42,069 nt of DNA from a virus (taxonomy: Duplodnaviria > Heunggongvirae > Uroviricota > Caudoviricetes). Below are positions 1,369-38,036 of the stretch, one piece after another. How positions within the stretch are numbered: the first letter of the stretch is position 1; every line of letters starts with the position of its first letter. The notes under the pieces were generated by a model. The model did no database searches. It was not told where the DNA came from and was given only the letters and a program-made list of their open reading frames with translations. Made by a program: the position numbers and the translations under genes. The DNA lies in IMG/VR virus record IMGVR_UViG_2541047817_000001, positions 1-42,069 of that record; one strand, written 5' to 3'.

Positions 1369-1444
1369 GCCGATATAGCTCAGTTGGTAGAGCAGCGCAT
1401 TCGTAATGCGAAGGTCGTAGGTTCGACTCCTATTATCGGCACCA
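1369..1444 (+). tRNA. thrW: tRNA-Thr (anticodon CGU)
   Basis: 76-nt sequence GCCGATATAGCTCAGTTGGTAGAGC...GGTTCGACTCCTATTATCGGCACCA folds as a cloverleaf with anticodon CGT at positions 34-36 and an encoded CCA end. It lies directly downstream of proA, as thrW does in E. coli. Confidence 0.93.
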
Positions 1445-1458
1445 TTTAAATCAATAAA

Positions 1459-2622
1459 TTACACATCATTAGTACCTTCCTTATTTTTTGACTGGGACAA
1501 ATTTGGGACCGATGGGTTCAGGATCGAGTCTATTTGCCGTGCGTGTTCGGTAAGGTGATTAGGTGCGAGGTGAGCATATCGACGAACCATTTCGATAGAC
1601 TCCCAGCCTCCCATTTCCTGTAACACTGACAACGGGACTCCGGCTTGAACCAGCCAACTTGCCCAGGTGTGTCTCAAGTCGTGAAATCTGAAATCATCAA
1701 TACCTGCTCGTCTCAGCGCCGCTTTCCAGGCTGTGTTTGCGTCATACCGCATCTTCCTGACCGTTGGCGCTTTCGTTCCGTCTGGTTTGGTACAGCTTTC
1801 CTTGTAAACAAATACCCAACGGTGATGATTCCCGATTTGTTTTTTCAATACGCGACATGCAGTATCATTCAGCGCAACGCCAATTGCGCGGTTTGATTTA
1901 CTCTCTTCCGGGTTTATCCATGCCACCCGGCGCTGCATGTCTATTTGTTGCCATTCAAGGTTGATGATGTTCGAGCGTCTTAAGCCTGTTGCCAGTGCAA
2001 ATTCAACAACAGACTTTAATGGCTCCGGACATTCATCAATCAGCCTTTGTGCTTCATGAGGCTCCAGCCAGCGGATACGTTTATTCTTCGGTTGAGGCAC
2101 TTTAATAATTGGTGCCTTATCCAGCATTTTCCATTCACGCTCTGCGGCTCTTAGCAGGGCCTTTATAAATGAAAGATGCGTAGCCTTCGTTGCAACGGAC
2201 GCTGGTTTTGGCGTGTATTCTGGAACAGGTTTCCCTTTTTTTCTGCATGCTTCTGCCCTGAGTTTCCAGTTTTCCTCATGACGCCGGTTTGTCATTTTCT
2301 GCATCGCTGAATAAATTTTTGATTCAGTGATGTCTCTTAGTTGCATCCCTGCGAAATGTTGAAGCCAGAATCCGATCCGGCTTTTGTCATCGTCCAGTGA
2401 TTTTTTATGTGCTTTCTCTTCAAGCCACCTGACACACGCTTCCTCGAACGTTATATCAGGTATTTCACCAAGTTTGCTGACCCGCCATGCTTCAGCCTTT
2501 AGCTTGTCATGGAGTTCTGTCGCCTGCCTTTTGTCCTTTGTTCCAAGAGACTGTTTAAATCTTTTACCGTTCGGCAATGTGAAACTGGCGTACCATATTT
2601 CACCTCTGCGGAAGAGTGACAT
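1459..2622 (-). CDS. int: Tyrosine site-specific integrase, P22 Int-like (387 aa)
   Basis: 387-aa ORF starting [47 protein letters not shown], closely resembling P22 integrase as recalled. C-terminal catalytic region carries [10 protein letters not shown] and RRYAHL. Adjacent to thrW, the known P22 attachment site. Confidence 0.93.
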
Positions 2623-2849
2623 TTTCTTTCCTCTGTTATGCCATCACCCGCGCTCACCTGGACAGTATGCAGCGGAGACTGAAGAGCCGCAATGCAGGCT
2701 TGTCGTGTTGTGAGGTAAGGAGATTTATTCTTAGTGGGATCTTTGCGTGTTGCCTGAAGACGCCCTGTGCGTATCCAGTTAATGGCAGTCGGTCTGGATA
2801 TCTTGAGAAAATGACAGGCCTCATCGAGTGTGAGGCTGTATGGCTCCAT
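2499..2849 (-). CDS. xis: Excisionase (Xis), HTH type (116 aa)
   Basis: Internal ATG at 2847-2849 gives a 116-aa protein [31 protein letters not shown] with an AlpA/Xis-type helix-turn-helix. It sits immediately upstream of int and overlaps its 5' end. Start is inferred from TAATG overlap with the upstream gene. Confidence 0.6.
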
Positions 2850-3154
2850 TATTTCACCTCTTGCTGTGACATTGTTGAAAAATGGATACCAGCTCGTTGC
2901 TGCCAGACGATCCAACCGAGAGTCATATCCCATGCCATGTATTCGTTATCGCCGTTTTTTGCTCTCCGACGATCTACTAAGTCACCGAAACGCTTTTCCA
3001 TGAATAATTCATAAGCTTCGCGTTCATCTGGTTCTACTTCCAGAGATAGGAGTGCGATTTCATAAGCACGGCGCTCAATATCGTCTCGCACGTCAAGGCT
3101 GCTGATACGCTCTTTAATTTCTTTAATCAGTTCTTTGTCGGTAAAAGTGGTCAT
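2849..3154 (-). CDS. Hypothetical acidic phage protein (101 aa), YfdT-like by size and position
   Basis: ORF-track ORF; start overlaps the upstream gene stop (ATGA). Same length and position as yfdT in the K-12 CPS-53 block (assignment from memory). Confidence 0.55.
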   Translation of the reverse strand: MTTFTDKELIKEIKERISSLDVRDDIERRAYEIALLSLEVEPDEREAYELFMEKRFGDLVDRRRAKNGDNEYMAWDMTLGWIVWQQRAGIHFSTMSQQEVK

Positions 3155-3510
3155 TATGCTCCAGCCTCCGGTGCTTTTGGCATTACTGCCCAGTGAGTGA
3201 TATTGACGTTTTCAAGGTCCCCGACCTGAAATGTCCACTGCCATTCTCCGGTTTCTTTTTGTCCCCAGGTGTACCAGAGAGAACGCCAGCCAATTAGCCA
3301 GCCTTCTCCGTTAGCATCGAATAACAAAACACTTTCATTTGCTGGTGGCAGTTCAGTTGACACTGGTATTACTTTGTTTTCCTGTGCTGCACATTTAGCT
3401 TCAAGCGCATCGAATTTACGCACCAGGTATTCAGCATCTGTTTCATTTACTTTCAGATCTCGCGGTACACATCTCCCACGAAGAAACCCTTCCATTTCGA
3501 AAACATTCAT
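3154..3510 (-). CDS. DUF551-like phage protein (YfdS-like)
   Basis: ORF-track ORF 3154..3516; the likely start is the ATG at 3508-3510, which overlaps the upstream stop (ATGA). Trp-rich C-terminus (WLIGWRSLWYTWGQKETGEWQW) is typical of DUF551 prophage proteins. Confidence 0.6.
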   Translation of the reverse strand: MNVFEMEGFLRGRCVPRDLKVNETDAEYLVRKFDALEAKCAAQENKVIPVSTELPPANESVLLFDANGEGWLIGWRSLWYTWGQKETGEWQWTFQVGDLENVNITHWAVMPKAPEAGA

Positions 3511-4043
3511 GCGCATTTGCGTAACTCCGATAACTCGTTAAAGCGTTCCATAAACATCCCGTAGGCATGGCCCGGTGCCAGTGGAATCACGTTGAACATC
3601 TCTGTTGCCGGGATACCTTCCAGTACAGGCCAGAAAGAGCCATCATCAAGCCCGAGATCGCGGCGTTCGGTTGCCAGCATGATGAGATCGGCATATTTCA
3701 CGGGCGTACTCATAACTGGGGGTAACCCGTATTTCTCACGGATTACGGCGTCTATTTTTTCTTCCATTTGTTTATAGTCAGGAAGAAGGCGTTTCAGTGG
3801 TGCGGGAATGTCCTGGCAATACGCTTCTGTTGCATCATGCATTAACGCTTCAAAAGCAAATTCCTGCGGCACCAGCTGGCTGCAAAGAACCGCATGTTGG
3901 GCGACGCTGTAGAAGTGCGAAAGATGACCGGCAAAGCGACAGATATTTGAAAGGGAAACCGCGATATCGTTAATATCGATGTCGTCTTTATTTATCCTGT
4001 CATAATAAAAATGCTTCCCGGAAAAAGTTTTAATAAATGACAT
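3507..4043 (-). CDS. yfdR: HD-domain phosphohydrolase / 5'-deoxynucleotidase-like protein (YfdR-like, 178 aa)
   Basis: Internal start MSFIKTFSGKHFYYD gives 178 aa. Contains an H..HD-type motif (ALMHDATEAY) consistent with an HD hydrolase. Size and context match YfdR of CPS-53 (from memory). Confidence 0.75.
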   Translation of the reverse strand: MSFIKTFSGKHFYYDRINKDDIDINDIAVSLSNICRFAGHLSHFYSVAQHAVLCSQLVPQEFAFEALMHDATEAYCQDIPAPLKRLLPDYKQMEEKIDAVIREKYGLPPVMSTPVKYADLIMLATERRDLGLDDGSFWPVLEGIPATEMFNVIPLAPGHAYGMFMERFNELSELRKCA

Positions 4044-4170
4044 TTTGTTCTCCACGTATATGCGCTGCACCGCGCTGAATTCTGGCAAAAAGAATCCCTC
4101 ACCATCCGGCGATTATTGAGTAAATTACGTTTCCATAAATGCCCCCGCAGGGGCATTTGCAGTAATGAAA

Positions 4171-4995
4171 TCAGGCGGTGAAAGTACCAATAAAGGTTTC
4201 TACTTTGCTGTCCTTGAATTTCTCAACAAGCAGATCACGAAATTCGTTAGCCATTTCTTCCTGCACCGCCTCCAGCTGAATAATGCGCAGAACCAGTACA
4301 GGACGATCGCCAGTGATAATACTGAGGCGTAATTTAAACGGACGTTCTTTCAGACCTTCAAACGGAACGCATTTAAATTCAAATGCCACTGGCATAATGT
4401 CTTTGGTCTTCGCTTCGACAGACTCCATCAGGGAGCGTTTGCCGCTGAAGTCATTATCTTCAAAATCAGCGGTCTGGTTTGCTTCAATCGTGATTTTACG
4501 GACAGCCGCAGCCGCTTTTGTTGCCTGAATAGCGTCACCATTAGCATCAAAGCCCACAAGATAGTCGGCCCAGTCTTCAATCCATTCTGCTAGTGACTTC
4601 TGGGAGTTACGCTCGCCGTTAACAGACAACAGAGCAGAGAACGGTGCTGTCTTTTTCAGTTTGAGTGTGGCGGTGTTATCTGCGTGACCTGGTTCATCAA
4701 TAGTACCCAGGTTAAGCACACTGACGGCACGCATATTATCAGCATCGATAAAGCAGCGGGTGCCTTCATCTGCAAGATCTTTAGAATAACGGGTAAAGTC
4801 ATCGATGCTGGCAGTGGAAAGCGCACCACGGAAACGGAAGCGATTTAAATTAAATTTTTCCAGATCATGAATGCGGAAATTCTCAGGCAATGCCACAGCA
4901 TCGGCACCAATCTTACTGATAATTTCATTAACACCCTGAGCAGAAATAAGGGCATGGATTTGATTAATTGCGGTTGCGTCTAAGTTCTGAGACAT
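4171..4995 (-). CDS. yfdQ: DUF2303-family phage protein (YfdQ-like, 274 aa)
   Basis: 274-aa ORF in the position and of the size of yfdQ in the CPS-53 early block. Family assignment is from memory. Confidence 0.7.
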
Positions 4996-5060
4996 AATAA
5001 GTCCTCACTATATAAAGATATTCAGTGATGAGATAAATAATCAGTTAATTAAAAACGATA

Positions 5061-5423
5061 TTAACGACCTGCTGCGCGGAGTTTTCCGTCAGGTTCACCG
5101 GCAAGAGTCAGTAACTGTCCCTGGTCTTCCTGCAGAATAGTCAGGCGACCACCGCGATTGACATACATCGGCGTTTCGGTGGTGTCTTCTTCGGAAATTT
5201 TCCCGCGGTTAGTCGGGCGAACATATGAGAGTTTGTGTTTGATTTTCACTCGGTTCTCATCAAACGGTTCGATTTCCAGGTTGAGCGAGACCTTACCTTT
5301 GGTTTTCGTGTTCATCACACCGGAAGCGACTTCACTGAGAACTGCGCCGATTTTGGTTTCAAATACGCCGCCGTCCAGCTCCCCGATAAATGCCTGCACA
5401 TCAGTACTGCGTTCGCTAGCCAT
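5061..5423 (-). CDS. Hypothetical phage protein (YfdP-like, 120 aa)
   Basis: Start chosen at the ATG at 5421-5423 (MASERSTDVQAFIGEL...), preceded by a strong Shine-Dalgarno GAGGAG. The ORF-track ORF runs further upstream to 5741 but that extension lacks a ribosome-binding site. Confidence 0.6.
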   Translation of the reverse strand: MASERSTDVQAFIGELDGGVFETKIGAVLSEVASGVMNTKTKGKVSLNLEIEPFDENRVKIKHKLSYVRPTNRGKISEEDTTETPMYVNRGGRLTILQEDQGQLLTLAGEPDGKLRAAGR

Positions 5424-5891
5424 TTTGCTGCTCCTCATCATATCGACCCTGCAAGGTCGGTTAGTTTCTCCACAAAACAGAGAAGAACACCTGCGGTGAC
5501 TGCCGCCCGGATGGATTGGGTTATGAGCCCGTCGTCCGGTGATGCTCTTCTCTGTTTTGTAAAAAGGACGGTACCAGCCGGAAGCAAGGGTACAAGCTGG
5601 TACCGCCAAGACTACACACAGCATAAAGTTGTGGTGCCGGGTGCCTCCCGGTGCCTGGCGAAGGTTGCACACCAGGCGGGTGGGTATCCACAGAAGGTCG
5701 ACTGTCAGCCTCAACCTTAACCCGCGTGCGCTGAGCCGCATTCACCACAACGCTAAGGATTCTCTCTGGTTGAAAATACTTAGCTGTTATGTGCCTGCTT
5801 TTAGCCACATCAGGCGAGGTGGACCTAGTTATTCCCCAACAACAAGGATTCGGTTAATCTGGTTATCCCCAACAACGTAAAAGGAAAAGAA
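5424..5891. other. GC-rich, highly structured non-coding region (several hairpins plus tandem direct repeats); candidate structured RNA or regulatory region
   Basis: No ORF with a ribosome-binding site. Perfect 14-bp inverted repeat CAAAACAGAGAAGA (5473-5486) / TCTTCTCTGTTTTG (5546-5559); 9-bp hairpin GGTACCAGC...GCTGGTACC (about 5570-5604); CCGGG...CCCGG and GCCTGG...CCAGGC stems (about 5636-5677); tandem direct repeats GTTAT(T)CCCCAACAAC at 5828-5843 and 5862-5876. Confidence 0.4.
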
Positions 5892-6326
5892 ATGTCCGGT
5901 AATATCTATACGCTGTACAAATCCCACTGTGAAAATGTTGGAAAGTATCGGGGCATTGAAATCAGTGGGGTAGTGTCATCAGTCGAAATAAGCAAAGTTG
6001 AATCAAGGGCAACATTACTTACTCTTTTGGACCTTGTCTTACATGAGCACCGGAAGAAATTCGGCACTCCCTATAATCAGTTGAATGGGAAAAAGGCTCT
6101 GGTTCACCTTATTCTGATGAAGCATCACTGGATGCCAAAACAGATTAATGAGATGAAATTTGATGAACTTCTTCTTTCAATTCAGGATGAACTCACACTT
6201 GATAAAATAAGCGTAACCGCCCAGAAATTTTTAGATTATCGAGACTGGAGATCACAAATTCATCACTTTGATGATTTTGACGAAAATGAATGGGATCCTA
6301 ATTTGTCTGCACAATATCTAAAGTAA
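5892..6326 (+). CDS. AT-rich orphan hypothetical protein (144 aa)
   Basis: ATG at 5892 preceded by AGGA. Visibly AT-rich compared with flanking DNA. No recognisable domain. Transcribed convergently with the first gene of the leftward early operon. Confidence 0.55.
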   Translation: MSGNIYTLYKSHCENVGKYRGIEISGVVSSVEISKVESRATLLTLLDLVLHEHRKKFGTPYNQLNGKKALVHLILMKHHWMPKQINEMKFDELLLSIQDELTLDKISVTAQKFLDYRDWRSQIHHFDDFDENEWDPNLSAQYLK

Positions 6327-6639: not shown

Positions 6640-6738
6640 CGTCCTGCCTGTTCGTTGTTTCGCTTGGGTACATTATGTATCTCAAGGGTACATTGTCAAG
6701 TATAAAAAAACCTGCCGAAGCAGGTTCATAAACATTGA
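6640..6738 (-). promoter_or_regulatory. Putative OL/PL region with repeated GGTACA-type operator motifs
   Basis: GGGTACATT occurs twice (6666-6674 and 6686-6694) and TACATTATGTA is palindromic. The same half-site recurs in the cI-cro intergenic region. Confidence 0.4.
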
Positions 6739-7735: not shown

Positions 7736-8305
7736 ATGAGGCTAATCGTGGGTAAGCATCACTGGAAAATAGAAAAACAGCCTGAGTGGTACGTGAAAGC
7801 TGTCAGAAAAACTATCGCGGCGTTGCCGGGTGGTTACGCTGAAGCGGCTGACTGGCTCGATGTAACAGAAAACGCTTTATTCAACCGCCTTCGTGCAGAT
7901 GGCGATCAGATTTTCCCGCTGGGATGGGCAATGGTTTTACAGCGTGCTGGTGGCACTCACTTCATTGCTGATGCTGTGGCGCAGTCTGCAAATGGCGTCT
8001 TTGTGTCTCTTCCTGACGTCGAGGATGTGGACAACGCCGATATTAACCAGCGTCTGCTGGAAGTCATTGAACAGATCGGCAGTTATTCAAAACAGATTCG
8101 TTCAGCAATCGAAGACGGTGTAGTGGAACCGCATGAGAAGACAGCAATTAACGACGAGCTGTATCTCTCAATTTCGAAGCTGCAGGAGCATGCAGCACTT
8201 GTCTACAAAATTTTTTGCATTTCAGAAAGTAATGACGCCCGCGAGTGTGCAGCTCCGGGCGTCGTGGCGTCGATTGCTTCTGGTTGTGGAGAAACTAACG
8301 CATGA
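7736..8305 (+). CDS. Putative CII/YdaT-like early regulatory protein (189 aa)
   Basis: Sits where cII sits in lambdoid phages, immediately after cro. Family assignment is tentative and the start codon is uncertain (a GTG at 7748 has a better ribosome-binding site). Confidence 0.4.
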
Positions 8306-8640
8306 ACAGTTTAACAACACACTACCGTCGCTCGCAACTGATTGCGCTTCCTGTACCGGGTGGAAAAGCGAAGGTGGAATATTGCTATGCAGTGAATGTA
8401 CCAGGTGACAGGGAAATTGTAACCCACAGCTTTGCAGAGTGGGCTGTGGGTGATTTCAACCGGCAGAAGGAGACAGTCCTTTGCGACAAGTTAACCGCTG
8501 GTTCAAAGATCACTACGGAGTGCCCGTCAGAGTCATTCGTTGGGAGCCGGAAACACAACGTGTTATCTACCTCCGCGAAGGCTATGAGCATGAGTGCTTC
8601 AGCCCGCTCGAACAGTTTCGTCGTAAATTCAGGGAAATAG
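8302..8640 (+). CDS. Hypothetical protein; coding frame ambiguous (possible frameshift or two overlapping small genes)
   Basis: The C-terminal part of the ORF-track ORF is low-complexity. A second frame from about 8481 (TTG, preceded by AAGGAG) to 8657 encodes a more protein-like sequence ([45 protein letters not shown]). Confidence 0.3.
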
Positions 8641-8649
8641 AGGTCGGTC

Positions 8650-9591
8650 ATGAGCACTAAATTAACCGGCTATGTATGGGATGGTTGCGCTGCATCAGGC
8701 ATGAAATTATCCAGCGTGGCAATTATGGCCCGCCTGGCTGATTTCAGTAATGACGAAGGTGTGTGCTGGCCATCAATTGAAACCATTGCCCGCCAGATTG
8801 GCGCGGGAATGAGTACCGTCAGAACGGCTATCGCACGGCTGGAAGCAGAAGGCTGGTTAACGCGTAAGGCGCGTCGCCAGGGTAACCGCAATGCGTCGAA
8901 TGTTTATCAGCTTAACGTTGCGAAGCTTCAGGCAGCGGCATTTTCTCAACTGTCAGATTCTGACCCGTCAAAATCTGACGCATCAAAATCTGACCCGTCA
9001 AAATTTGATGCGTCGAAATCTGGCAAAAAAGCGGGTTTTCACCCGTCAGAATCTGGCGGGGATCCGTCAGTAAAATCAAAACATGATCCGTCAGATAAAA
9101 AAACTTCTCGTCCGGACGCTTCGCAACCGGACACGCAGACGGCTGAACAGGAGTTTTTAACTCGCCATCCTGATGCGGTTGTATTCAGCCCTAAAAAGCG
9201 CCAGTGGGGAACGCAGGATGATTTGACCTGCGCACAGTGGCTCTGGAAAAAAATCATCGCCCTGTACGAGCAGGCCGCCGAATGTGACGGCGAGGTGGTT
9301 CGTCCCAAAGAACCGAACTGGACAGCCTGGGCAAACGAAATTCGCCTGATGTGTGTGCAGGATGGTCGTACTCACAAACAAATCTGCGAGATGTACAGCC
9401 GCGTCAGCCGCGATCCGTTCTGGTGCCGTAACGTGCTCAGCCCGTCGAAGCTGCGGGAAAAATGGGATGAGCTTTCCCTGCGCTTATCGCCGTCCGTCAG
9501 CACGTACACCGAAAAACGCGAAGACCCGTACTTCAAAGCCAGTTACGACAACGTGGACTACAGCCAGATCCCGGCAGGATTCAGGGGGTGA
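8650..9591 (+). CDS. Replication initiation protein (O-like, N-terminal HTH; 313 aa)
   Basis: N-terminal winged-helix/HTH (WPSIETIARQIGAGMSTVRTAIARLEAEGWL). Central low-complexity DPSKSDASKSD region encoded by iteron-like DNA repeats. Sits at the lambdoid O position. Confidence 0.7.
   Translation: MSTKLTGYVWDGCAASGMKLSSVAIMARLADFSNDEGVCWPSIETIARQIGAGMSTVRTAIARLEAEGWLTRKARRQGNRNASNVYQLNVAKLQAAAFSQLSDSDPSKSDASKSDPSKFDASKSGKKAGFHPSESGGDPSVKSKHDPSDKKTSRPDASQPDTQTAEQEFLTRHPDAVVFSPKKRQWGTQDDLTCAQWLWKKIIALYEQAAECDGEVVRPKEPNWTAWANEIRLMCVQDGRTHKQICEMYSRVSRDPFWCRNVLSPSKLREKWDELSLRLSPSVSTYTEKREDPYFKASYDNVDYSQIPAGFRG
8950..9100 (+). repeat. Iteron-like tandem direct repeats (putative phage replication origin) inside the replication gene
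   Basis: About five 15-bp repeats with core TCAAAATCTGAC (8950-9024), then degenerate CCGTCAG-containing repeats and an A-rich tract (GATAAAAAAA) near 9090-9100. Confidence 0.55.
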
Positions 9592-9593
9592 TC

Positions 9594-10082
9594 ATGAGTC
9601 TTTTGAATGAAGTTCAGAAATACATTGAAGCCCATCCGGGGTGTACTTCCGGAGACATTGCGGATGCTTTTGCAGGTTACTCACGGCAGCGCGTTCTGCA
9701 GTCAGCAAGCAAGTTACGTCAGAGTGGGCGTGTGGCTCACCGTTGTGAAGGAGATACACGCAGACATTTCCCTCGCCTGACTGAGAGAGCGCAGGAGCCG
9801 GAACCACAACCAGTTCGTGAAACCAGACCTGTGCGCAATTTCTATGTCGGCACTAACGATCCACGGGTAATTTTGTGCCTGACCCGCCAGGCTGAAGAAC
9901 TGGAGTCCAGGGGCTTATACCGTCGTGCTGCAACCGTGTGGATGGCGGCATTCCGTGAAAGCCACTCCCAGCCAGAACGAAACAATTTTCTGGAGCGTCG
10001 TGAGCGGTGCTTACGGAAAAGCAGCAAGCGCGCGGCATCGGGTGAAGAGTGGTATCTGTCAGGGAATTACGTGGGGGCTTAA
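9594..10082 (+). CDS. PerC-family-like transcriptional regulator (162 aa)
   Basis: ATG at 9594 preceded by GGGGG. The motif AEELESRGLYRRAATVWMAAF resembles the PerC signature; N-terminus looks like a winged helix. Confidence 0.55.
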   Translation: MSLLNEVQKYIEAHPGCTSGDIADAFAGYSRQRVLQSASKLRQSGRVAHRCEGDTRRHFPRLTERAQEPEPQPVRETRPVRNFYVGTNDPRVILCLTRQAEELESRGLYRRAATVWMAAFRESHSQPERNNFLERRERCLRKSSKRAASGEEWYLSGNYVGA

Positions 10083-10735
10083 TGAGTAATAAATATTGCC
10101 AGGCGCTGGCGGAACTGCGGAACAAACCAGCCCATGAACTGAAGGAAGTGGGCGATCAGTGGCGCACGCCGGATAACATTTTCTGGGGAATTAACACCCT
10201 GTTTGGCCCGTTTGTTCTGGATCTGTTCACTGATGGTGATAACGCCAAATGTGCTGCGTATTACACGGCGGAAGACAACGCGCTGGCGCATGACTGGTCA
10301 GAACGTCTTGTGGAGCTTAAAGGTGCTGCCTTTGGTAATCCCCCATACAGCCGCGCCAGTCAGCATGAGGGGCAATACATCACCGGCATGCGTTACATCA
10401 TGAAACATGCCAGTGCCATGCGTGATAAGGGTGGGCGCTATGTTTTCCTGATCAAAGCTGCCACCAGCGAAGTGTGGTGGCCGGAAGATGCGGACCATAT
10501 TGCTTTTATTCGCGGGCGTATTGGTTTTGAACTGCCTGCCTGGTTTATCCCGAAAGATGAGAAGCAGGTGCCGACAGGCGCTTTCTTCGCTGGTGCTATT
10601 GCTGTTTTCGACAAGACCTGGAAGGGACCGGCAATCAGCTACATCGGGCGCGATGAACTTGAGGCATGTGGTGAGGCGTTTCTGGTGCAGGTTCGCCAGC
10701 AGGCGGAAAAACTGGTCAGGGAGATGGCGGCATGA
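10082..10735 (+). CDS. Phage DNA N6-adenine methyltransferase (Dam-like, orphan)
   Basis: Contains the NPPY catalytic motif (AFGNPPYSRA). ATG at 10082 overlaps the upstream stop. No adjacent restriction endonuclease. Confidence 0.8.
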   Translation: MSNKYCQALAELRNKPAHELKEVGDQWRTPDNIFWGINTLFGPFVLDLFTDGDNAKCAAYYTAEDNALAHDWSERLVELKGAAFGNPPYSRASQHEGQYITGMRYIMKHASAMRDKGGRYVFLIKAATSEVWWPEDADHIAFIRGRIGFELPAWFIPKDEKQVPTGAFFAGAIAVFDKTWKGPAISYIGRDELEACGEAFLVQVRQQAEKLVREMAA

Positions 10736-11058
10736 CGACGTTAACTCAATGCCAGCAGCAGGTGCTGGATATGCTGATTTCTTACCAGAAAGAACGTGGC
10801 TTCCCGCCAACCAATCAGGAGGTGGCAACCATGCTGGGATACCGTTCAGTGAATGCAGCGGTGGAACATCTTCGCGCACTGGAGAAAAAAGGCGTCATCA
10901 CGATAAAGCGTGGCGTGGCCCGGGGTATCACTCTTCATACCGCGGTGAAGGACGACGACAGCGAGGCGGTCGGGATTATCCGCTCACTGCTTGCCGGTGA
11001 GGAAAACGCCAGGCTGCGTGCAACCCACTGGTTACATGAGAGAGGCCTGAAAGTATGA
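10732..11058 (+). CDS. LexA N-terminal DNA-binding-domain protein (108 aa; no peptidase domain)
   Basis: LTQCQQQVLDMLISYQKERGFPPTNQEVATMLGYRSVNAAVEHLRALEKKGVI parallels the LexA N-terminal winged-helix domain. The ORF ends before any S24 peptidase region. Confidence 0.7.
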   Translation: MTTLTQCQQQVLDMLISYQKERGFPPTNQEVATMLGYRSVNAAVEHLRALEKKGVITIKRGVARGITLHTAVKDDDSEAVGIIRSLLAGEENARLRATHWLHERGLKV

Positions 11059-11444
11059 AGCTGATCCTGCCTTTCCCGCCCAGCGTGAACACGTACTGGC
11101 GACACCCCAACAAAGGGGCATTTGCTGGTAAGAGCCTGATAAGCGCGGCGGGGCGAAAATTTCAGAGCGCGGCGTGCGCAGCAATAGTTGAGCAGTTACG
11201 TCGTCTGCCAAAACCAACGTCGGCACCTGCTTCAGTGGAGATCGTGTTGTTTCCTCCGGATAACCGGATCCGCGATCTGGACAACTATAACAAGGCGCTG
11301 TTTGACGCGTTGACCCACGCGGGTGTGTGGGAAGACGACAGACAGGTGAAAAGAATGCTGGTGGAGTGGGGACCGGTTATCCCGAAAGGGAAGGTCGAGA
11401 TCACCATCAGTAAGTACGAGAAAACGGCGGGTGCAGCCGCCTGA
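11055..11444 (+). CDS. rusA: Holliday junction resolvase RusA
   Basis: 129-aa protein with the RusA-type motifs (PPSVNTYW, DLDNYNKALFDALT). Typical lambdoid position between the replication genes and Q. Confidence 0.85.
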   Translation: MKLILPFPPSVNTYWRHPNKGAFAGKSLISAAGRKFQSAACAAIVEQLRRLPKPTSAPASVEIVLFPPDNRIRDLDNYNKALFDALTHAGVWEDDRQVKRMLVEWGPVIPKGKVEITISKYEKTAGAAA

Positions 11445-11463
11445 TCAAGAGGAGAAACGAAGT

Positions 11464-12261
11464 ATGAATAATCTGATGGTCATTGATGGTATTGAAGTTC
11501 GTCGTGATGCTTATGGTCGTTACAGCCTGAACGATCTGCACAGGGCTGCCGGTTCTCTGGATAAGCATAAGCCTGCATTCTGGCTCCGCAATGAGCAAAC
11601 TGAACGTTTAATAAGCGAGTTGCAGATTTGCAACTCGGTCAATATAGAGCCAGTTAACGTTATTCGTGGCGGAAATAACCAGGGGACGTATGTCTGCAAA
11701 GAACTGGTGTATGCCTATGCAATGTGGATAAGCCCGTCATTCCATCTGAAGGTGATCCGTACTTTCGACATGGTAACCAGCGCACCGGAAAAATTATCCG
11801 GACAGGCTGCTGACAAGATGCAGGCTGGTGTGATTCTGCTGGACTTTATGCGCCGGGAATTAAACCTGTCTAACTCTTCAGTGCTTGGTGCCTGTCAGAA
11901 ACTCCAGGAGGCTGTTGGCTTACCGAATCTGGCACCGCGCTATGCCATTGATGCTCCTGCTGACGCGCCTGATGGCTCAAGCCGCCCCACGCTGTCACTG
12001 AGTGCACTGCTGAAGCAGTATGGTATCCGCCTGACAGCTAATCAGGCATATCACCAGATGGCGAAGCTGGGGATCGTTGAACAACGTGAACGATACAGCC
12101 GCACTGCGATTAACAACATCAAAAAATTCTGGTCGCTGACGGCGAAAGGCTGCATGTTCGGCAAGAACATCACCAGTCCCGCAAATCCGCGCGAGACGCA
12201 GCCGCATTTCTTCGAATCCCGGTTCCCTGAGCTGTTAAAGCTGCTCGATACCGTTCATTGA
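11464..12261 (+). CDS. KilA-N domain protein (antirepressor-like)
   Basis: ATG at 11464. N-terminal KilA-N-like segment (MNNLMVIDGIEVRRDAYGRYSLNDLHRAAG...KPAFWL). Confidence 0.65.
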   Translation: MNNLMVIDGIEVRRDAYGRYSLNDLHRAAGSLDKHKPAFWLRNEQTERLISELQICNSVNIEPVNVIRGGNNQGTYVCKELVYAYAMWISPSFHLKVIRTFDMVTSAPEKLSGQAADKMQAGVILLDFMRRELNLSNSSVLGACQKLQEAVGLPNLAPRYAIDAPADAPDGSSRPTLSLSALLKQYGIRLTANQAYHQMAKLGIVEQRERYSRTAINNIKKFWSLTAKGCMFGKNITSPANPRETQPHFFESRFPELLKLLDTVH

Positions 12262-12262
12262 G

Positions 12263-13258
12263 GTGACCGTGAGAGCGCTACTGATCCCTGAAATTGCCCC
12301 GCGTATGGGGATCGTATTGTTCAGGCCAGGTTCAGAGCTGATGCCCCTGTTTATGCAGGGGCGTGTCCTGCTGGAGCCTGAGCCGGAACGTTATTCATCT
12401 TTCGCCAGTGGTGCCGTTCCGGCGGCATCACAACCGCTGGCGGATGATCCTGCCGTTCGGGCCGTGTTCCGTAATGAGGCAGTGATTCGTCGTGCTGGTG
12501 GGTTGGAATGTCTTGAAAGCTGGTTACTTCGTGAAAAAGGCTGCCAGTGGCCTCATTCCGACTGGCACAGCGAGAACATGACCACAATGCGACACGCGCC
12601 GGGTGCAATCCGTCTGTGCTGGCACTGCGATAATCAGTTACGTGATCAGTTCACGGAGCGGCTGGAATCAATGGCAACGGATAACTGTGCCCGTTGGGTG
12701 TTGTCTGTAGTCCGTCGGGATCTCGATTTTGATGATAACCATGCCGTGACAATGCCGGAACTGTGCTGGTGGCTGATTCGTAATGACCTGGCGGATGCCT
12801 TACCTGAAAGCGCAGCCCGTAAGGCGCTGAGATTACCGAAACCTGTTGTGCCGTCTGTCACCCGGGAAAGTGACCTTGTGCCTTCGGTTCCTGCCACCAG
12901 CATCATCCTGGATAAAGCGAAAAAGGTGCTGGCGCTGAAAGTGGATCCGGAGTCGCCGGAGTCTTTTATGTTACGCCCAAAAAGCCGCCGCTGGGTTAAT
13001 GAAAAGTACACGCGCTGGGTTAAGACACAGCCGTGTGCATGTTGTGGAAAGCCTGCTGATGATCCCCACCATCTGATAGGCCACGGTCAGGGTGGAATGG
13101 GTACAAAAGCGCATGACCTCTTTGTGTTGCCTTTGTGCAGAAAGCATCACGACGAGCTGCATGCGGATACCGTGGCATTTGAAGAGAAGTATGGCTCTCA
13201 GCTGGAGCTGATATTTCGTTTTATCGATCGTGCGCTGGCAATTGGCGTACTGGCCTGA
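12263..13258 (+). CDS. DUF968-family phage protein (YdfU-like, 331 aa)
   Basis: Cys/His-rich C-terminus (CACCGKPADDPHHLIGHGQGGMGTKAHD...CRKHHDELH) typical of DUF968 proteins found upstream of Q in lambdoid prophages. Non-ATG start in the ORF track. Confidence 0.65.
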   Translation: MTVRALLIPEIAPRMGIVLFRPGSELMPLFMQGRVLLEPEPERYSSFASGAVPAASQPLADDPAVRAVFRNEAVIRRAGGLECLESWLLREKGCQWPHSDWHSENMTTMRHAPGAIRLCWHCDNQLRDQFTERLESMATDNCARWVLSVVRRDLDFDDNHAVTMPELCWWLIRNDLADALPESAARKALRLPKPVVPSVTRESDLVPSVPATSIILDKAKKVLALKVDPESPESFMLRPKSRRWVNEKYTRWVKTQPCACCGKPADDPHHLIGHGQGGMGTKAHDLFVLPLCRKHHDELHADTVAFEEKYGSQLELIFRFIDRALAIGVLA

Positions 13259-13275
13259 TTTTGTGGAGAAAGTTG

Positions 13276-13623
13276 ATGCGTGATATGTATGAAGTGATGG
13301 ATCGTTGGGGAGCTTGGGCTGCTTCAGACAATAGCGGAGTGGACTGGCAACCGGTAGCCGCTGGCTTCAAGGGGCTTTTACCTCATGGCAAAAAGTCCCG
13401 GATTCAGTGTGATGATGATGAGGGGCTCATGATCGATGGGTGCGTAGCTAGATTAAGAAAGTACAAACCAGAAGAGTATGAGTTAGTTATAGCCCATTTT
13501 GTGGTAGGGATTTCATTGCGAGCCATTGCTAAGAAGAGAAAGTGTTCGGATGGGACTATCAGGAAAGAGTTGCAAACATCGCTTGGTTTCATTGAAGGCA
13601 TTGTTTGCACTCTTGCCTGTTAA
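13276..13623 (+). CDS. Q: Late-gene antiterminator Q (small Q family, 115 aa)
   Basis: ATG at 13276 (MRDMYEVMDRW...). Small Q-like protein in the conserved position ahead of the lysis genes. Confidence 0.7.
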   Translation: MRDMYEVMDRWGAWAASDNSGVDWQPVAAGFKGLLPHGKKSRIQCDDDEGLMIDGCVARLRKYKPEEYELVIAHFVVGISLRAIAKKRKCSDGTIRKELQTSLGFIEGIVCTLAC

Positions 13624-13644: not shown

Positions 13645-14529
13645 TTATATTGGGCGCTTTGAATTCGATTTAAAGCGTCTTCCACTTATTCCAGAAACCC
13701 AAATGTCTTCCTCAAGAAAGTCAAGAAGGGCTTTTATTTCTTTTTTTGATGAAGGCATGACAATTTTCTCAACACCGCCAACTATTATGGTTTGTAAGGG
13801 GAAATTAACTTTAGCAGCTTCGGATTTAAACTTTGACATATTTTGGGGTGTTAGCATCCCAGTCTGATTTATTAGTGTTACTTTATTTCTTATCACTGTA
13901 TCTGCAACGGATTTTAGATCAAAACCTTGGGGAGTAGAAAATATACTAAGTTGACTAAATGCATTAAGTTCTTGGTCAGTAGCAGCAGAAAAATAGGACG
14001 ACATGTCAAAAATGCTTCTTAGATTAAAGAAACTCTTAAATCGTATTGTATCATTGATAATTATTGCAACTAGTTTATCATCAACATTAAAACCGATGCT
14101 ATTAGCTTTACTAAAGGTAGTTTTGCTTGCAAAAAGCTTTCCAAAGAATGATTTTGAGGTATCTAAGATTTGTTTTTTGTTGAAAGTTTGTAGTGCAATA
14201 ATATTGGGGTTTGCTGGCGCGTCAACACCAACAAATAATGCTTTAATATAACCAATATCAATTTGGCTAGGATCCCAGATAGGCACGGCGGTAGGCCTAT
14301 TGACTGCGTCAATCAGGCGTGCAGAATCAGTAAAGTTTTGTATTTCAAAACACTCACTATGTTTTGGTGTATAACCGGCATAGAATGGTATCATATTGTT
14401 ATGATGACTTTCAAAATATTGACGCTGTTGTTGGAAAATGGCCGTAACAGAAGTACTTGCTGTTGCATCAAGTTCGACTCTAACAATTCTCGTTGCAATT
14501 GTATTATCTATTACTGCAAAAAGTGCCAT
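13645..14529 (-). CDS. Hypothetical protein (294 aa); second gene of the AT-rich antisense island; candidate defence component
   Basis: ORF with no recognisable motif, visibly AT-rich, on the opposite strand to the late operon, 5 nt downstream of the membrane-protein gene. Confidence 0.6.
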   Translation of the reverse strand: MALFAVIDNTIATRIVRVELDATASTSVTAIFQQQRQYFESHHNNMIPFYAGYTPKHSECFEIQNFTDSARLIDAVNRPTAVPIWDPSQIDIGYIKALFVGVDAPANPNIIALQTFNKKQILDTSKSFFGKLFASKTTFSKANSIGFNVDDKLVAIIINDTIRFKSFFNLRSIFDMSSYFSAATDQELNAFSQLSIFSTPQGFDLKSVADTVIRNKVTLINQTGMLTPQNMSKFKSEAAKVNFPLQTIIVGGVEKIVMPSSKKEIKALLDFLEEDIWVSGISGRRFKSNSKRPI

Positions 14530-14534
14530 GGTTA

Positions 14535-15056
14535 TTATCCTTTAACATGTAGAAATGTGTAGTCTGTTAATTGAATAACTGTAAATTTGATATCTTTAAT
14601 ATCAGTAATAACTGATTTAGAAATCAATACAAAACCTACGCCGGTGTCATCTTCAGCTTCGTAAAATTTATAACCGATAAGTGACAATACTGGGTTAAAG
14701 TTATAGTTCTCGGAAAAGCTGATGTAAAATAACAATGATAAATAAAAGAATAACGCATATGCTTTATTTTCAGCAATAGAATCTGTTCCTAGGAGAGGGA
14801 ATAAATAGCTTAAGAAATAATTAGTTACTTCTTTGTTAGCGGGAGAAACTGAACTAATATTTTTTGTCAGAGGTTCAAGTTGTTTCTCAGCATATTGAAT
14901 CAGGCCTATTGCTAATAACCAACTTGCTATGCCAACGCATAAGCTATATTGCATCAGCCAAACCGTATCTTTTACATATCCAATAAAAAATAGAGTTGCG
15001 CAAACAGGTGCAATTGAGCTGGCTGTTAATAATAAGCGTGCTAATTTGTTCATCAT
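14535..15056 (-). CDS. Integral membrane protein (173 aa, about 4 TM helices); first gene of the AT-rich antisense island
   Basis: Hydrophobic segments at roughly residues 8-28, 36-56, 80-91 and 100-118. AAGGA ribosome-binding site ahead of the ATG at 15054-15056. Visibly AT-rich. Confidence 0.6.
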   Translation of the reverse strand: MMNKLARLLLTASSIAPVCATLFFIGYVKDTVWLMQYSLCVGIASWLLAIGLIQYAEKQLEPLTKNISSVSPANKEVTNYFLSYLFPLLGTDSIAENKAYALFFYLSLLFYISFSENYNFNPVLSLIGYKFYEAEDDTGVGFVLISKSVITDIKDIKFTVIQLTDYTFLHVKG

Positions 15057-15387: not shown

Positions 15388-15714
15388 ATGCCTCATAACC
15401 CAAATACTTGGCTGGACTTGGTCCAGAGCTGGTGGCGTGGAGACACACCGCTGGGCGCAGTGATTATGTCGATTGTTATGGCTGGTTTGCGTATCGCCTA
15501 CTTTGATGGTGGTGGCGGCTGGAAGCGAAAAACGCTCGAGATTTTGCTCTGTGGCGCTCTGACTCTGACTTTTGCATCCGCGCTTGAGTATGTCGGATGG
15601 CCTAAATCGCTTTCTGTTGCCATTGGTGGTGGCGTTGGGTTGATCGGTGTCGATGCTATTCGTGGGGCTGCAATGAGAGTAATCGGTAATAAGTTTGGTG
15701 GCTCTAAGGAGTAA
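15388..15714 (+). CDS. Holin (lambda S-like class, 108 aa)
   Basis: Small membrane protein with about 3 TM segments and a charged C-terminus, immediately upstream of the endolysin. Confidence 0.75.
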   Translation: MPHNPNTWLDLVQSWWRGDTPLGAVIMSIVMAGLRIAYFDGGGGWKRKTLEILLCGALTLTFASALEYVGWPKSLSVAIGGGVGLIGVDAIRGAAMRVIGNKFGGSKE

Positions 15715-15717
15715 TTT

Positions 15718-16194
15718 ATGCAGGTACTAAATTCCCAGCGTAAAGCTTTCCTCGATATGGTGGCATGGTCAGAAGGAACGGATAACGGGCGACAACCGAC
15801 ACGTAACCACGGTTATGATGTTATTGTTGGCGGCGAACTGTTCACTGATTACTCCGATCACCCTCGCAAACTTGTCACGCTAAACCCCAAACTCAAATCA
15901 ACAGCCGCCGGGCGTTATCAGCTTCTTTCACGCTGGTGGGATGCTTACCGTAAACAGCTTGGTTTGAAAGACTTCTCCCCCAAAAGCCAGGACGCAGTGG
16001 CATTGCAGCAGATTAAAGAGCGTGGCGCTTTACCGATGATTGATCGCGGTGATATCCGTCAGGCTATCGATCGTTGCAGCAATATCTGGGCGTCATTACC
16101 CGGCGCTGGTTACGGTCAGTATGAACATAAAATCGGTGACCTGATTGCCCGATTCAAAGAGGCTGGCGGGGTGGTAAATGAAGTTGAGCTATAA
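15718..16194 (+). CDS. R: Endolysin, lambda R-type lytic transglycosylase (158 aa)
   Basis: Near-identical to lambda R as recalled (NSQRKAFLDMVAWSEGTDNGRQPTRNHGYDVIVGGELFTDYSDHPRK...). Confidence 0.9.
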   Translation: MQVLNSQRKAFLDMVAWSEGTDNGRQPTRNHGYDVIVGGELFTDYSDHPRKLVTLNPKLKSTAAGRYQLLSRWWDAYRKQLGLKDFSPKSQDAVALQQIKERGALPMIDRGDIRQAIDRCSNIWASLPGAGYGQYEHKIGDLIARFKEAGGVVNEVEL

Positions 16195-16639
16195 GCTGGT
16201 TATCGTTGCTTTCTTCGTTACTGTCATTGGTTCTTTCATCTGTTCAGTGAATCGTTACCACAATAAAGCCATTGAATACAAAATGCAGCGTGATGAGAAT
16301 GCTATGGCATTAGATTCGGCTATGGCGACCATCTTTGATATGCAGAAGCGTCAACGTGACGTAGCAGAACTTGACGCCAGATACACAAAGGAGCTTGCTG
16401 ATGCTAATGCGACTATCGAAAGTCTCCGTGCTGATGTTTCTTCTGGGCGTAAGCGCCTGCAAGTCGCCGCCACCTGTGCAAAATCAACGACCAGAGCCAG
16501 CGGCATGGGCGATGGAGAAAGCCCAGGACTTACAGCAGATGCTGAATTCAATTATTACCGTCTCCGAAGTGGAATCGACAGGATAACCGCACAGGTTAAT
16601 TACCTACAGGAATACATCAGAACTCAATGCATGAATTAA
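16178..16639 (+). CDS. Rz: Rz i-spanin (153 aa)
   Basis: N-terminal TM anchor followed by a coiled-coil region; homologous to lambda Rz (NRYHNKAIEYKMQRDENA..., QRDVAELDARYTKELADA...). Confidence 0.8.
   Translation: MKLSYKLVIVAFFVTVIGSFICSVNRYHNKAIEYKMQRDENAMALDSAMATIFDMQKRQRDVAELDARYTKELADANATIESLRADVSSGRKRLQVAATCAKSTTRASGMGDGESPGLTADAEFNYYRLRSGIDRITAQVNYLQEYIRTQCMN
16401..16586 (+). CDS. Rz1: Rz1 o-spanin lipoprotein, embedded in Rz in the +1 frame
   Basis: Signal peptide with lipobox (MRLSKVSVLMFLLGVSAC) followed by a proline-rich mature segment (KSPPPVQNQRPEPAAW), all within the Rz gene. The start could be the ATG at 16401 or 16407. Confidence 0.65.
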   Translation: MLMRLSKVSVLMFLLGVSACKSPPPVQNQRPEPAAWAMEKAQDLQQMLNSIITVSEVESTG

Positions 16640-18309: not shown

Positions 18310-18335
18310 GCCTCGCACATGCGGGGCTTTTTTAT
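18310..18335 (+). terminator. Rho-independent terminator after the three-gene cassette
   Basis: GCCTCGC-ACAT-GCGGGGC stem-loop followed by TTTTTT. Confidence 0.5.
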
Positions 18336-18369
18336 GCGCACCACACATGCACATCAAAGAGAGTCTTCA

Positions 18370-18720
18370 ATGCCGCCACGAATCCCAAAAGCCTGCCGTG
18401 TTCGCGGTTGCCGCCATACCACGACTGACCCGTCAGGCTACTGCGAAAGCCACAAAAGCGAAGGCTGGAAGCAATACAAACCTAGACAATCCCGTCATCA
18501 GCGCGGCTACGGTTCGAAGTGGGACAGTATCCGCGCGCGTGTCCTGAAGCGTGACAAAGGCCTGTGTCAGTTATGTCTGCGTGCCGGTGTGGTGCGTGAG
18601 GCGAAAGCCGTTGACCACATCATCCCTAAAGCGCATGGCGGCACTGATGCCGACTGTAATCTGCAGAGTCTGTGCTGGTCGTGTCATAAGGCGAAGACGG
18701 CCCGTGAACGGCTGAAGTGA
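18370..18720 (+). CDS. HNH endonuclease (packaging-associated)
   Basis: Cys/His HNH signature (CQLCLRAGVVREAKAVDHIIPKAHGG...NLQSLCWSCHKAK), immediately upstream of the small terminase gene. Start chosen at the ATG at 18370 (MPPRIPK). Confidence 0.8.
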   Translation: MPPRIPKACRVRGCRHTTTDPSGYCESHKSEGWKQYKPRQSRHQRGYGSKWDSIRARVLKRDKGLCQLCLRAGVVREAKAVDHIIPKAHGGTDADCNLQSLCWSCHKAKTARERLK

Positions 18721-18845
18721 TAATAATTCTCAACTGTCTGAGGGGAGGGGCGGGTCAAATCCCTGTGACCTGACGTCTTCCGGACTGCCCGCCCCATCGT
18801 TTTTTTATACCCGCGAAAAATGAAATTTAACCAGGAGTGCCGCAT

Positions 18846-19340
18846 ATGGCTGGAACGGCGGGGCGTTCCGGGCGTCGCCCCAAGCCAACGGCGCGCAAGG
18901 CGCTGGCCGGAAACCCCGGCAAGCGAGCCCTGAATAAAGATGAACCTGTTTTTACGCCCATCAAAGGTGTTGAGCCACCGGAGTGGTTCGCTGAAGAAGA
19001 TCTCCCTCTCGCTACGATCATGTGGCAACTGACAACTAAAGAACTCTGCGGTCAGGGCCTGCTGTGCGTGACTGACCTCGCGGTGCTTGAGCGGTGGTGT
19101 GTGGCCTACGAGTTCTGGCGACGTGCCGTGAAAAATATTGCCAGACAGGGCAACACCATCACCGGTGCAATGGGCGGCAGGGTCAAAAATCCGGAGCTGA
19201 CCGCCAAAAAAGAACAGGAGTCCGAGATGAGCAGTACGGGGGCAATGCTCGGACTCGACCCCAGCAGCCGCCAGCGTCTGATTGGCCTGGCGGGGAAGAA
19301 GAAAGCCACTAACCCGTTTCTGAAAATCATCGAATCATGA
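18846..19340 (+). CDS. Terminase small subunit
   Basis: ATG at 18846 preceded by GGAG. Basic N-terminus ([27 protein letters not shown]), directly upstream of and overlapping the large terminase gene (ATGA). Confidence 0.75.
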
Positions 19341-21070
19341 GCCGGAAATCTTACCCCAACGTAAATGCTGCCAATCAGTATGCCCGGGATGTCGTGCGCG
19401 GAAAGATTGTGGCCTGCCAGTTTGTGATTCAGGCCTGCCAGCGCCATCTTGATGACCTGATGGCGGAAAAAAGTAAGTCGTTTCGTTACCGCTTCGACAA
19501 GGACCTGGCTGAACGGGCCGCCAAATTTATTCAGCTGTTGCCGCACACCAAGGGTGAGTGGGCATTCAAGAGGATGCCCATCACGCTGGAGCCGTGGCAG
19601 CTCTTTGTGATCTGCTGCGCGTTTGGCTGGGTCAATAAAGGCTCCCGGCTGCGCCGCTTCCGTGAGGTGTATACCGAAATCCCCCGTAAGAACGGCAAAT
19701 CGGCAATCTCTGCCGGTGTCGCCCTGTATTGTTTTGCCTGTGATAACGAGTTCGGCGCGGAAGTGTATTCCGGTGCCACGACGGAGAAACAGGCATGGGA
19801 AGTCTTTCGTCCGGCAAGACTGATGTGTAAACGCACACCCATGCTGACGGAAGCGTTCGGGATTGAGGTTAACGCCTCAAACATGAACCGTCCGGAGGAT
19901 GGTGCGCGTTTTGAACCGCTGATCGGTAACCCCGGTGATGGTTCATCACCCCACTGTGCGGTGGTGGATGAATATCACGAGCACGCCACAGATGCGCTTT
20001 ACACCACGATGCTTACCGGGATGGGGGCGCGACGTCAGCCACTGATGTGGGCTATCACTACCGCCGGGTACAACATTGAGGGGCCGTGCTACGACAAACG
20101 GCGGGAAGTCATCGAGATGCTCAACGGCTCGGTGCCTAACGATGAACTGTTCGGGATCATCTATACCGTTGATGAAGGTGACGACTGGACCGACCCGCAG
20201 GTGCTGGAAAAAGCCAATCCAAATATTGGCGTGTCGGTTTATCGCGAATTTTTGTTAAGTCAGCAGCAGCGTGCGAAAAATAACGCCCGTCTGGCAAACG
20301 TCTTTAAAACAAAACACCTCAATATCTGGGTGTCGGCGCGTTCGGCGTATTTCAACCTGGTGAGCTGGCAGAGCTGCGAGGATAAATCACTGACCCTTGA
20401 GCAGTTCGAGGGGCAGCCGTGCATTCTGGCCTTTGACCTGGCGCGTAAGCTGGATATGAACAGCATGGCGCGACTTTATACCCGTGAGATTGACGGTAAA
20501 ACGCATTACTACAGTGTGGCCCCGCGTTTCTGGGTACCGTATGACACGGTGTACAGCGTCGAGAAAAATGAAGATCGACGGACAGCCGAACGCTTTCAGA
20601 AATGGGTGGAAATGGGCGTTCTGACCGTTACCGATGGTGCGGAGGTGGATTATCGCTACATCCTCGAGGAGGCCAAAGCGGCGAACAAAATCAGCCCGGT
20701 CAGTGAGTCACCCATCGACCCCTTCGGGGCGACCGGGTTGTCACATGACCTTGCTGATGAAGACCTGAACCCCATCACTATCATTCAGAACTACACCAAC
20801 ATGTCCGACCCGATGAAAGAGCTGGAAGCGGCAATTGAATCGGGGCGCTTTCATCATGATGGCAATCCCATCATGACCTGGTGTATCGGCAACGTGGTCG
20901 GCAAAACCATTCCGGGTAACGATGATGTGGTGAAGCCCGTCAAAGAGCAGGCGGAAAACAAAATCGATGGTGCAGTTGCGCTGATTATGGCAGTTGGCAG
21001 AGCCATGCTGTACGAGAAAGAAGACACGCTGTCTGACCACATTGAGTCCTATGGGATCCGCTCGCTTTAA
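19337..21070 (+). CDS. Terminase large subunit (577 aa)
   Basis: Size, position and ATPase/nuclease-type architecture; a Walker-A-like motif (PRKNGKS) near residue 110. Confidence 0.9.
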
Positions 21071-21081
21071 CTGAGGTAATT

Positions 21082-23133: not shown

Positions 23134-23147
23134 TCAGGAGAAATACG

Positions 23148-24602: not shown

Positions 24603-24604
24603 GT

Positions 24605-26373: not shown

Positions 26374-26381
26374 GGATCCTC

Positions 26382-38010: not shown

Positions 38011-38036
38011 TCCTGCTTTTGTCAGAGGGAGCTACC

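Follow-up and report, generated by a model that had tools for sequence, protein, structure and literature searches.

The thrW locus and the left end of the prophage

The DNA analysed here (the window) is a stretch of 42,069 nucleotides (nt), covering positions 1 to 42,069 of the IMG/VR virus record IMGVR_UViG_2541047817_000001 and read 5' to 3' on one strand. It opens with proA (1-1254; a 417-amino-acid open reading frame (ORF), named from RefSeq-genome annotation), which sits 114 nt ahead of a single tRNA-Thr gene with the anticodon CGT. In Escherichia coli K-12 an identical 114-nt gap separates proA from a tRNA gene that is named thrW and forms the left end of the cryptic prophage CP4-6. An Rfam scan of the whole window returned this tRNA-Thr gene as its sole match. 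The remainder of the window almost certainly represents nearly all of a temperate phage of ~40.8 kb that belongs to the lambdoid myoviruses of the SfV/SfIV family and has inserted into the 3' end of E. coli thrW. The features that define its ends and its leftmost genes are the following.

1369..1444, plus strand: thrW, tRNA-Thr(CGU), found by ARAGORN and Rfam (71.8 bits) and positioned after proA like K-12 thrW
1399..1444, plus strand: attL core of 46 bp, ATTCGTAATGCGAAGGTCGTAGGTTCGACTCCTATTATCGGCACCA, equal to the SfIV and P22 attP cores and to the published core
1445..1560, no strand assigned: P' arm of the att site, overlapping the 3' end of int and conserved with the P' arms of SfIV and P22 attP (alignment)
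1459..2622, minus strand: int, P22-type tyrosine integrase of 387 amino acids (PF00589 over its full length, E=3e-48)
2499..2849, minus strand, ATG at 2849: xis, P22-type excisionase of 116 amino acids (HTH_17; TIGR01764 excisionase motif)
2849-3154, minus strand: yfdT homologue, 96.0% amino acid identity to K-12 YfdT (BLASTP, as for the next four)
3154-3516, minus strand: yfdS homologue, 95.8% identity to K-12 YfdS
3507-4088, minus strand: yfdR homologue, 97.8% identity to K-12 YfdR
4171-4995, minus strand: yfdQ homologue, 99.3% identity to K-12 YfdQ
5061-5741, minus strand: yfdP homologue, 99.2% identity to K-12 YfdP
42035..42069, plus strand: start of the conserved attR P arm (the last ~35 nt of the window), placed by aligning the attR of E. 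coli LH13-b with SfIV and P22 attP

DNA similarity to phage begins precisely at position 1399, and the 46-bp core published for SfI, SfII, SfV, SfX and P22 matches 1399-1444 (PMC3636060). SfV-like phages integrate at thrW, beside proA, through this core, which they have in common with P22 (PMC3636060). The thrW gene is intact in the window, as the 46 nt at its 3' end come from the prophage. An initial annotation made from the letters alone had placed the insertion at thrW and named this the attachment site of P22; both statements hold, as the 46-bp core is identical in the attP sites of P22 and SfIV. Two TGGGAC repeats lie within the P' arm (about 1493-1512), and, together with those in the P arm, they are candidates for the arm-type sites of the integrase.

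For the right end, we turned to E. coli LH13-b, which is 99.3% identical over window positions 33000-42069. This genome carries a second copy of the core 90 nt beyond the point that corresponds to the end of the window. The ~135 nt ahead of this copy align with the SfIV P arm, and on its other side come a fragment of a LysR gene and paoD. The duplicated tRNA segment had been expected downstream of the window, and in near-identical LH13-b a copy of the core does lie there. By this comparison the attR core would be located ~90 nt past the window end, and the phage genome would measure ~40,760 bp if the source genome matches LH13-b at attR. We also rebuilt the empty site by joining the proA-thrW flank to the sequence that follows attR (proA-thrW-LysR remnant). 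This rebuilt site was found contiguous, at a coverage of at least 80%, in 948 of 5426 complete E. coli genomes, the best matches being 100% covered at 99.3% identity. The element is therefore a precise insertion.

A P22-type integration module beside a yfd-type early block

The integrase and the excisionase had been proposed to resemble Int and Xis of P22, and BLASTP against the P22 reference (NC_002371) bears this out over the full length of both proteins: 89.9% identity across 387/387 amino acids for Int and 87.1% across 116/116 for Xis. Both are 100% identical to their SfIV counterparts. The int gene lies 14 bases past the tRNA end, and its overlap with xis is 124 nt, the same as in P22. 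The putative catalytic residues R215 (ATGLRRS), H314-x-x-R317 (HDLRHT) and Y349 (RRYAH) align with the catalytic domain of the HP1 integrase; judged by this Arg, the His-x-x-Arg, the Tyr nucleophile and the full-length PF00589 match, the predicted protein is a tyrosine recombinase. In the K-12 CPS-53 region (NC_000913, 2464000-2480000), BLASTP at E<=1e-3 gave no match of Int to IntS or of Xis to TorI, and a PDB sequence search with Xis returned only noise (E >= 0.045). At the DNA level the similarity to P22 amounts to 80.6% over 1399-2849, a stretch bounded precisely by the start of the att core and the ATG of xis, and elsewhere it is confined to the Rz stretch 16330-16639 (310 nt). This places Int in the P22 family.

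The genes that follow had been matched to K-12 yfdT/S/R/Q/P by size, order and motifs. Their identities of 96-99% at the amino acid level confirm this assignment with clear significance, and the K-12 block indeed lies at a different tRNA gene, since CPS-53 occupies argW. The block as a whole (2849..5741) contains DUF551, HD/YfbR-like and DUF2303 domains and is 98.7-100% identical to SfIV p30-p34. Identity to the SfIV proteins reaches 100% for the YfdT/S/R/Q homologues (p30-33), p36, cI, Cro and the replication protein. Given that the E-values are effectively zero, chance is not an issue. It was previously reported that SfV encodes YfdQRST homologues (orf29-31), that over-expression of yfdQRST in K-12 inhibits DnaA-dependent initiation at oriC, and that YfdR binds DnaA (PMC4776307). 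By analogy, a role of these genes in host takeover during lytic growth of the present phage is plausible.

The element belongs to the SfV/SfIV family

Several stretches of the window tie the element to SfIV and its relatives. The left 6.6 kb share 98.9% nucleotide identity with SfIV and 98.4% with SfV, and similarity to SfIV DNA extends over 1399-10085 (98.7%) and 21976-36077 (97.5%). The late genes are 97% identical to those of SfII and SfI, and 82% identical to those of Salmonella phage ST64B. The junction between xis and yfdT is present in the published SfV and SfIV phages at 98.7-98.9% nucleotide identity. The arrangement is also common: in 266 of the 5426 complete E. coli genomes, a single uninterrupted place holds at least 80% of window 1-8000.

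SfV-like phages have been defined as lambdoid myoviruses (PMC3603311). The element has the lambdoid gene order of cI/cro/cII, replication genes, Q and a lysis cassette, as indicated by Pfam and by comparison with SfIV proteins. It further combines the 46-bp thrW core with a P22-type Int/Xis pair beside attP and, as read from its genes, an HK97-type head with cos and a contractile tail with a baseplate of the Mu gp43-48 type. The two thrW integrators SfIV and SfV are known to share Int/Xis and the orf30-34 cluster (PMC3851460). The initial annotation had called the element a strong mosaic, and modules of P22 type, CPS-53 type, HK97 type and Mu type were all recovered. The first description of such a mosaic architecture reportedly dates from 2002, for SfV, and the genomes of SfI, SfII and SfIV later added to it. 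It is a published hallmark of the SfV/SfIV family, and the junction is already known rather than new. The claim that a P22 module is joined to a CPS-53-like block is thus correct as far as the junction itself is concerned, but the arrangement is standard for SfV and SfIV and not peculiar to this element.

SfIV (NC_022749 / KC814930) has the same attP core, P arm, head and tail genes and thrW site. It differs in carrying gtrA-gtrB-gtrIV and insertion sequence (IS) elements beside attP, where the window has GmrSD and an orphan ORF. Compared with SfIV, Q is only 55% identical and the KilA-N protein 67%, while the window has an extra block of low guanine-plus-cytosine (GC) content at 16640-18320, and its tail fibre ends in another tip and includes an invertible segment. 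The type phage SfV (NC_003444 / U82619) shares the int-xis-yfdTSRQP order, integration at thrW and the Mu-type tail, and is 98.4% identical at the nucleotide level over 88% of window 1369-8000. However, it covers only 32% of window 8001-33000 at megablast level, carries gtrV, and has a divergent HK97-type set of portal, protease and capsid (PMC3851460). ST64B and e14 share with the element the gene set for an HK97-type head and a Mu-type tail, with ST64B at ~82% nucleotide identity over the late region, but their integration and early regions differ. The relatedness of e14 to SfI and SfV has been reported before (PMC3636060).

Immunity, replication, lysis, head and tail modules

The remaining phage modules are arranged as listed below.

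5892..6326, plus strand: ECs1072-family phage-associated gene (NCBIfam NF033230, E=1.7e-46)
6660..6730, minus strand: candidate early-left promoter/operator (consensus scan and repeats)
6739-7413, minus strand: cI, S24 LexA-like repressor (Pfam; 100% identical to SfIV)
7504-7704, plus strand: cro-like gene (Pfam; product 100% identical to SfIV Cro)
7748-8305, plus strand: cII-like gene (Pfam)
8302..13623, plus strand: replication and nin-like region (Pfam; iterons; SfIV comparison)
8650-9591, plus strand: replication initiator gene, carrying iterons (Pfam)
13261-13623, plus strand: antiterminator Q (Pfam)
15388..16639, plus strand: lysis cassette with holin, endolysin and Rz (holin and lysin 97-99% identical to SfIV)
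18319..24353, plus strand: packaging and head genes, comprising HNH, cos, TerS, TerL, portal, S78 protease and HK97-type capsid (Pfam)
24605..35770, plus strand: connector and contractile tail, comprising sheath, tube, chaperone, tape measure and a Mu gp43-gp48-type baseplate (Pfam)
35774..38228, no single strand: tail fibre with a Mu G-segment-like invertible region (crossover repeats; truncated Gin-like invertase)

Between yfdP and cI, a near-consensus promoter (TTGACA-16-CATAAT, 11/12 matches) was found on the minus strand at 6672-6699. A terminator-like hairpin (6708-6727) is located downstream of cI and ahead of this candidate promoter, which is flanked by GTACA half-sites. Between cI and cro the half-sites are found again, in the form of GTACA/TGTAC palindromes within 7425-7500, for example CTTGTACCGTTAAGGTACAAG. 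We infer that 6660-6730 and the palindromes at 7425-7500 are candidate OL and OR operators, respectively.

The region 8302-13623 encodes orf112, the replication protein, PerC/YfdN, a Dam methylase, a LexA-DNA-binding protein, RusA, KilA-N, DUF968 and Q. Six iterons at a spacing of 15 nt (TCAAAATCTGAC-like) lie inside the replication initiator gene at 8938-9060, which is presumably the phage origin. In the lysis cassette, the 3' part of Rz is 91.6% identical to P22 at the nucleotide level. The block of low GC content (~0.32) that is missing from SfIV separates Rz from HNH; its small ORFs (17249-17560, 17532-17936 and 17982-18284) matched only PHROGs of unknown function.

The head genes fall into the Pfam families portal PF04860, S78 protease PF04586 and capsid PF05065, and TerL, portal, protease and capsid are 26-36% identical to HK97 by tblastn. 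The decamer TGCCCGCCCC is located at 18786-18795, 40 nt upstream of the TerS gene, and corresponds to the 10-nt cohesive end reported for SfI (PMC3636060). The baseplate genes form the Pfam series DNA_circ_N/gp43, GpP/gp44, Gp45, GP46, Baseplate_J/gp47 and Gp48, and the sheath and gp43-48 proteins are 27-45% identical to those of Mu (tblastn). These data agree with the earlier description of the head as HK97-like and the tail as Mu-like. At the tail fibre, 20-nt inverted crossover repeats (AAACCTTGGTTTGGGAGAAG) were observed at 36058-36077 and 37956-37975, and the minus strand of the invertible region (36058-38228) encodes alternative fibre tips and chaperones.

Evidence against the assignment and alternative explanations

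A number of observations weigh against the assignment of the element to a temperate SfV/SfIV-family phage. Firstly, at least 80% of the stretch from Q to HNH (13200-18400) was not present in one place in any complete genome or phage record of the searched collections, and the exact mosaic variant was not found whole in these collections. Secondly, the gtrABC genes that define the serotype-converting Shigella members are missing: similarity to SfIV ends at 37210, and the slot holds GmrSD and the orphan ORF. Judged from its gene content, the element is a member of the phage family but not a serotype-converting one. Thirdly, searches of the window for a second copy of the thrW 3' end (25-nt pattern with <=3 mismatches; direct-repeat search) returned the thrW copy only, so that no attR lies inside it, and the right boundary is deduced from LH13-b, whose sequence agrees with the final 9 kb of the window at 99.3% identity. 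Finally, gp45, the Mu gp45-type baseplate spike, has a nonsense codon at 33681-33683 (Q169 to stop relative to SfIV) that removes the last 14 amino acids, the remainder being identical to SfIV, and the Gin-like invertase (38001-38228) is cut to 75 amino acids, with 57% identity to Mu Gin. The truncation of the invertase means that the tail-fibre orientation is probably locked, and because of these two lesions the phage may not be fully viable.

The gp45 and invertase lesions could also point to a defective cryptic prophage of the same kind as CPS-53 or CP4-6, permanently lodged in the chromosome and without the capacity to excise or to form particles. The several cargo insertions, and the fact that attR was not directly seen, fit such a remnant as well. 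All functional modules are nevertheless present at full length, and most module proteins are 91-100% identical to those of viable SfIV, with only Neck1, KilA-N, Q, Rz and the tail fibre at 55-78%. In addition, Int, Xis, cI and Cro match their SfIV counterparts at 100% identity, the cos site is in place, and both att arms are conserved. We therefore regard a defective remnant as unlikely.

It is highly improbable that the element arose recently by an unusual recombination event that fused a P22-like integration module to a block from CPS-53. This explanation draws on the sharp end of the P22 similarity at the xis start codon, where the CPS-53 similarity begins, and on the location of the K-12 yfd block at another tRNA site. 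However, the identical junction occurs in SfIV and SfV at 98-99% nucleotide identity, and the left part of the window recurs contiguously in the 266 E. coli genomes mentioned above; with the same junction already present in SfIV/SfV, we rejected a novel recombinant. Moreover, K-12 CPS-53 itself keeps 57 nt of a P22-type xis beside yfdT, and the end of the ORF annotated as ypdJ in K-12 still corresponds to the first 18 codons of this xis. The xis-yfdT junction is therefore older than the present form of CPS-53.

That the element is a prophage of a P22-like podovirus (Lederbergvirus) can practically be dismissed. Its P22-type Int, Xis and attP and its thrW location would suit such a phage, but DNA similarity to P22 is nil outside 1399-2849 and the 310 nt of Rz, and the structural genes specify a head of HK97 type and a contractile tail of Mu type, with a cos site and myovirus genes in place of P22-type structural genes and headful (pac) packaging. 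The integration module shares its core, xis/int overlap and tRNA target with P22. In P22, a podovirus that packages by the headful mechanism, the gene upstream of xis is eaC instead of yfdT.

CPS-53 as a relic of the same lineage

With the element assigned to the SfV/SfIV family, its relation to K-12 CPS-53 (KplE1) can be described in detail. CPS-53 matches window 2793-5442 at 96.6% nucleotide identity and continues directly with 8883-10348 (97.6%); the next matches are 35836-36077 and then, inverted, 36886-37446. It thus lacks window 5443-8882, which holds the immunity region, and 10349-35835, which holds the late genes. The breakpoints fall at 9586/9587, 8122-8124 and 12235 of the K-12 locus (L003) and at 2793, 5442/8883 and 10348/35836 of the window. 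What CPS-53 shares with the element (yfdP-T, the C-terminal part of the replication gene (yfdO), yfdN, yfdM and tail-fibre fragments) is collinear at 91-98% nucleotide identity. CPS-53 uses intS/torI at argW, however, and keeps the gtr genes yfdGHI. It is also collinear with SfIV from gtrA onwards, as far as a position short of the attP core, and its sole non-homologous part is torI-att(argW)-intS, as opposed to xis-int-att(thrW).

The window has the yfdP-Q-R-S-T block of CPS-53, but the IntS/TorI module at argW is absent and the site is thrW. On these alignments, CPS-53 is best read as a relic within the same lineage of phages, reduced by deletions, that has exchanged its integration cassette for intS/torI at argW. 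The label "CPS-53-like" used in the initial annotation was justified by the similarity of 96-99%, but it had the direction backwards, CPS-53 being the relic, with two deletions and a swapped cassette. The block is better described as the early-left operon of the SfV/SfIV family itself.

Defence cargo in the moron slots

Two positions in the element carry cargo genes, as follows.

13645-14529, minus strand: kwaB (DUF4868), full length (PADLOC E=3.5e-150)
14535-15056, minus strand: kwaA, full length (PADLOC E=1.9e-83)
38262..41672, no single strand: attR-proximal cargo replacing gtrABC, consisting of GmrSD and the orphan ORF
38262-40151, minus strand: GmrSD type IV (modification-dependent) restriction enzyme (Pfam GmrSD_N and GmrSD_C; PADLOC mREase_IV, 1481 bits)
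40770-41672, plus strand: orphan ORF of 300 amino acids (41 homologues, without a Pfam family)

The kwaA and kwaB genes are adjacent, co-oriented and 5 nt apart, and they make up a complete Kiwa defence pair. This pair (13645..15056) forms a moron of low GC content (0.33) between Q and holin, a slot where SfIV has IS and hypothetical genes and no Kiwa. Other E. coli prophages carry Kiwa or a KAP NTPase at the Q-holin slot. The GmrSD gene is full length and occupies the gtrABC position of SfIV, SfV and P22.

The orphan ORF has 41 detectable homologues among 5.8 billion proteins, and these have an invariant LRNFVQHCGMPP motif. Among the three loci listed, a homologue in Morganella, in the one further prophage that was inspected, is the gene right behind the integrase where this unrelated prophage ends, and on a metagenomic contig a homologue lies beside a weak HEPN_RiboL-PSP match and an integrase fragment. 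It is conceivable, though rather doubtful, that the orphan represents a new single-gene determinant of phage exclusion or abortive infection, and that SfV-type phages swap surface modification for intracellular defence cargo at this slot.

A model for integration and excision

The identities, the boundaries, the att core and the empty-site reconstruction are shown by the comparisons above, and the following model was built on them. The attP site repeats the last 46 bp of thrW, and homology to characterised systems directly implies that the P22-type Int recombines attP with the tRNA gene through this core. Integration in this manner restores an intact thrW at the int-proximal attL and leaves the 46-bp partial copy at the far attR. 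P22-type Xis is a winged-helix recombination directionality factor. By the same homology, it reverses the integration together with Int, using the conserved P and P' arms. The element may thus far be able to excise. The int and xis genes appear to form the distal end of a leftward early operon together with yfdP-Q-R-S-T. This operon would start just left of cI and is probably driven by a cI-repressed promoter at that position.

Implications for the SfV/SfIV family

The proper label for the element is that of an SfIV-like prophage with SfIV immunity and without gtr, rather than a P22-like or CPS-53-like one. Its comparison with K-12 yields exact breakpoints for CPS-53 as a deletion relic of this lineage. 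In the element itself, Kiwa, GmrSD and the orphan gene fill moron slots that in its relatives hold O-antigen modification genes or other inserts.

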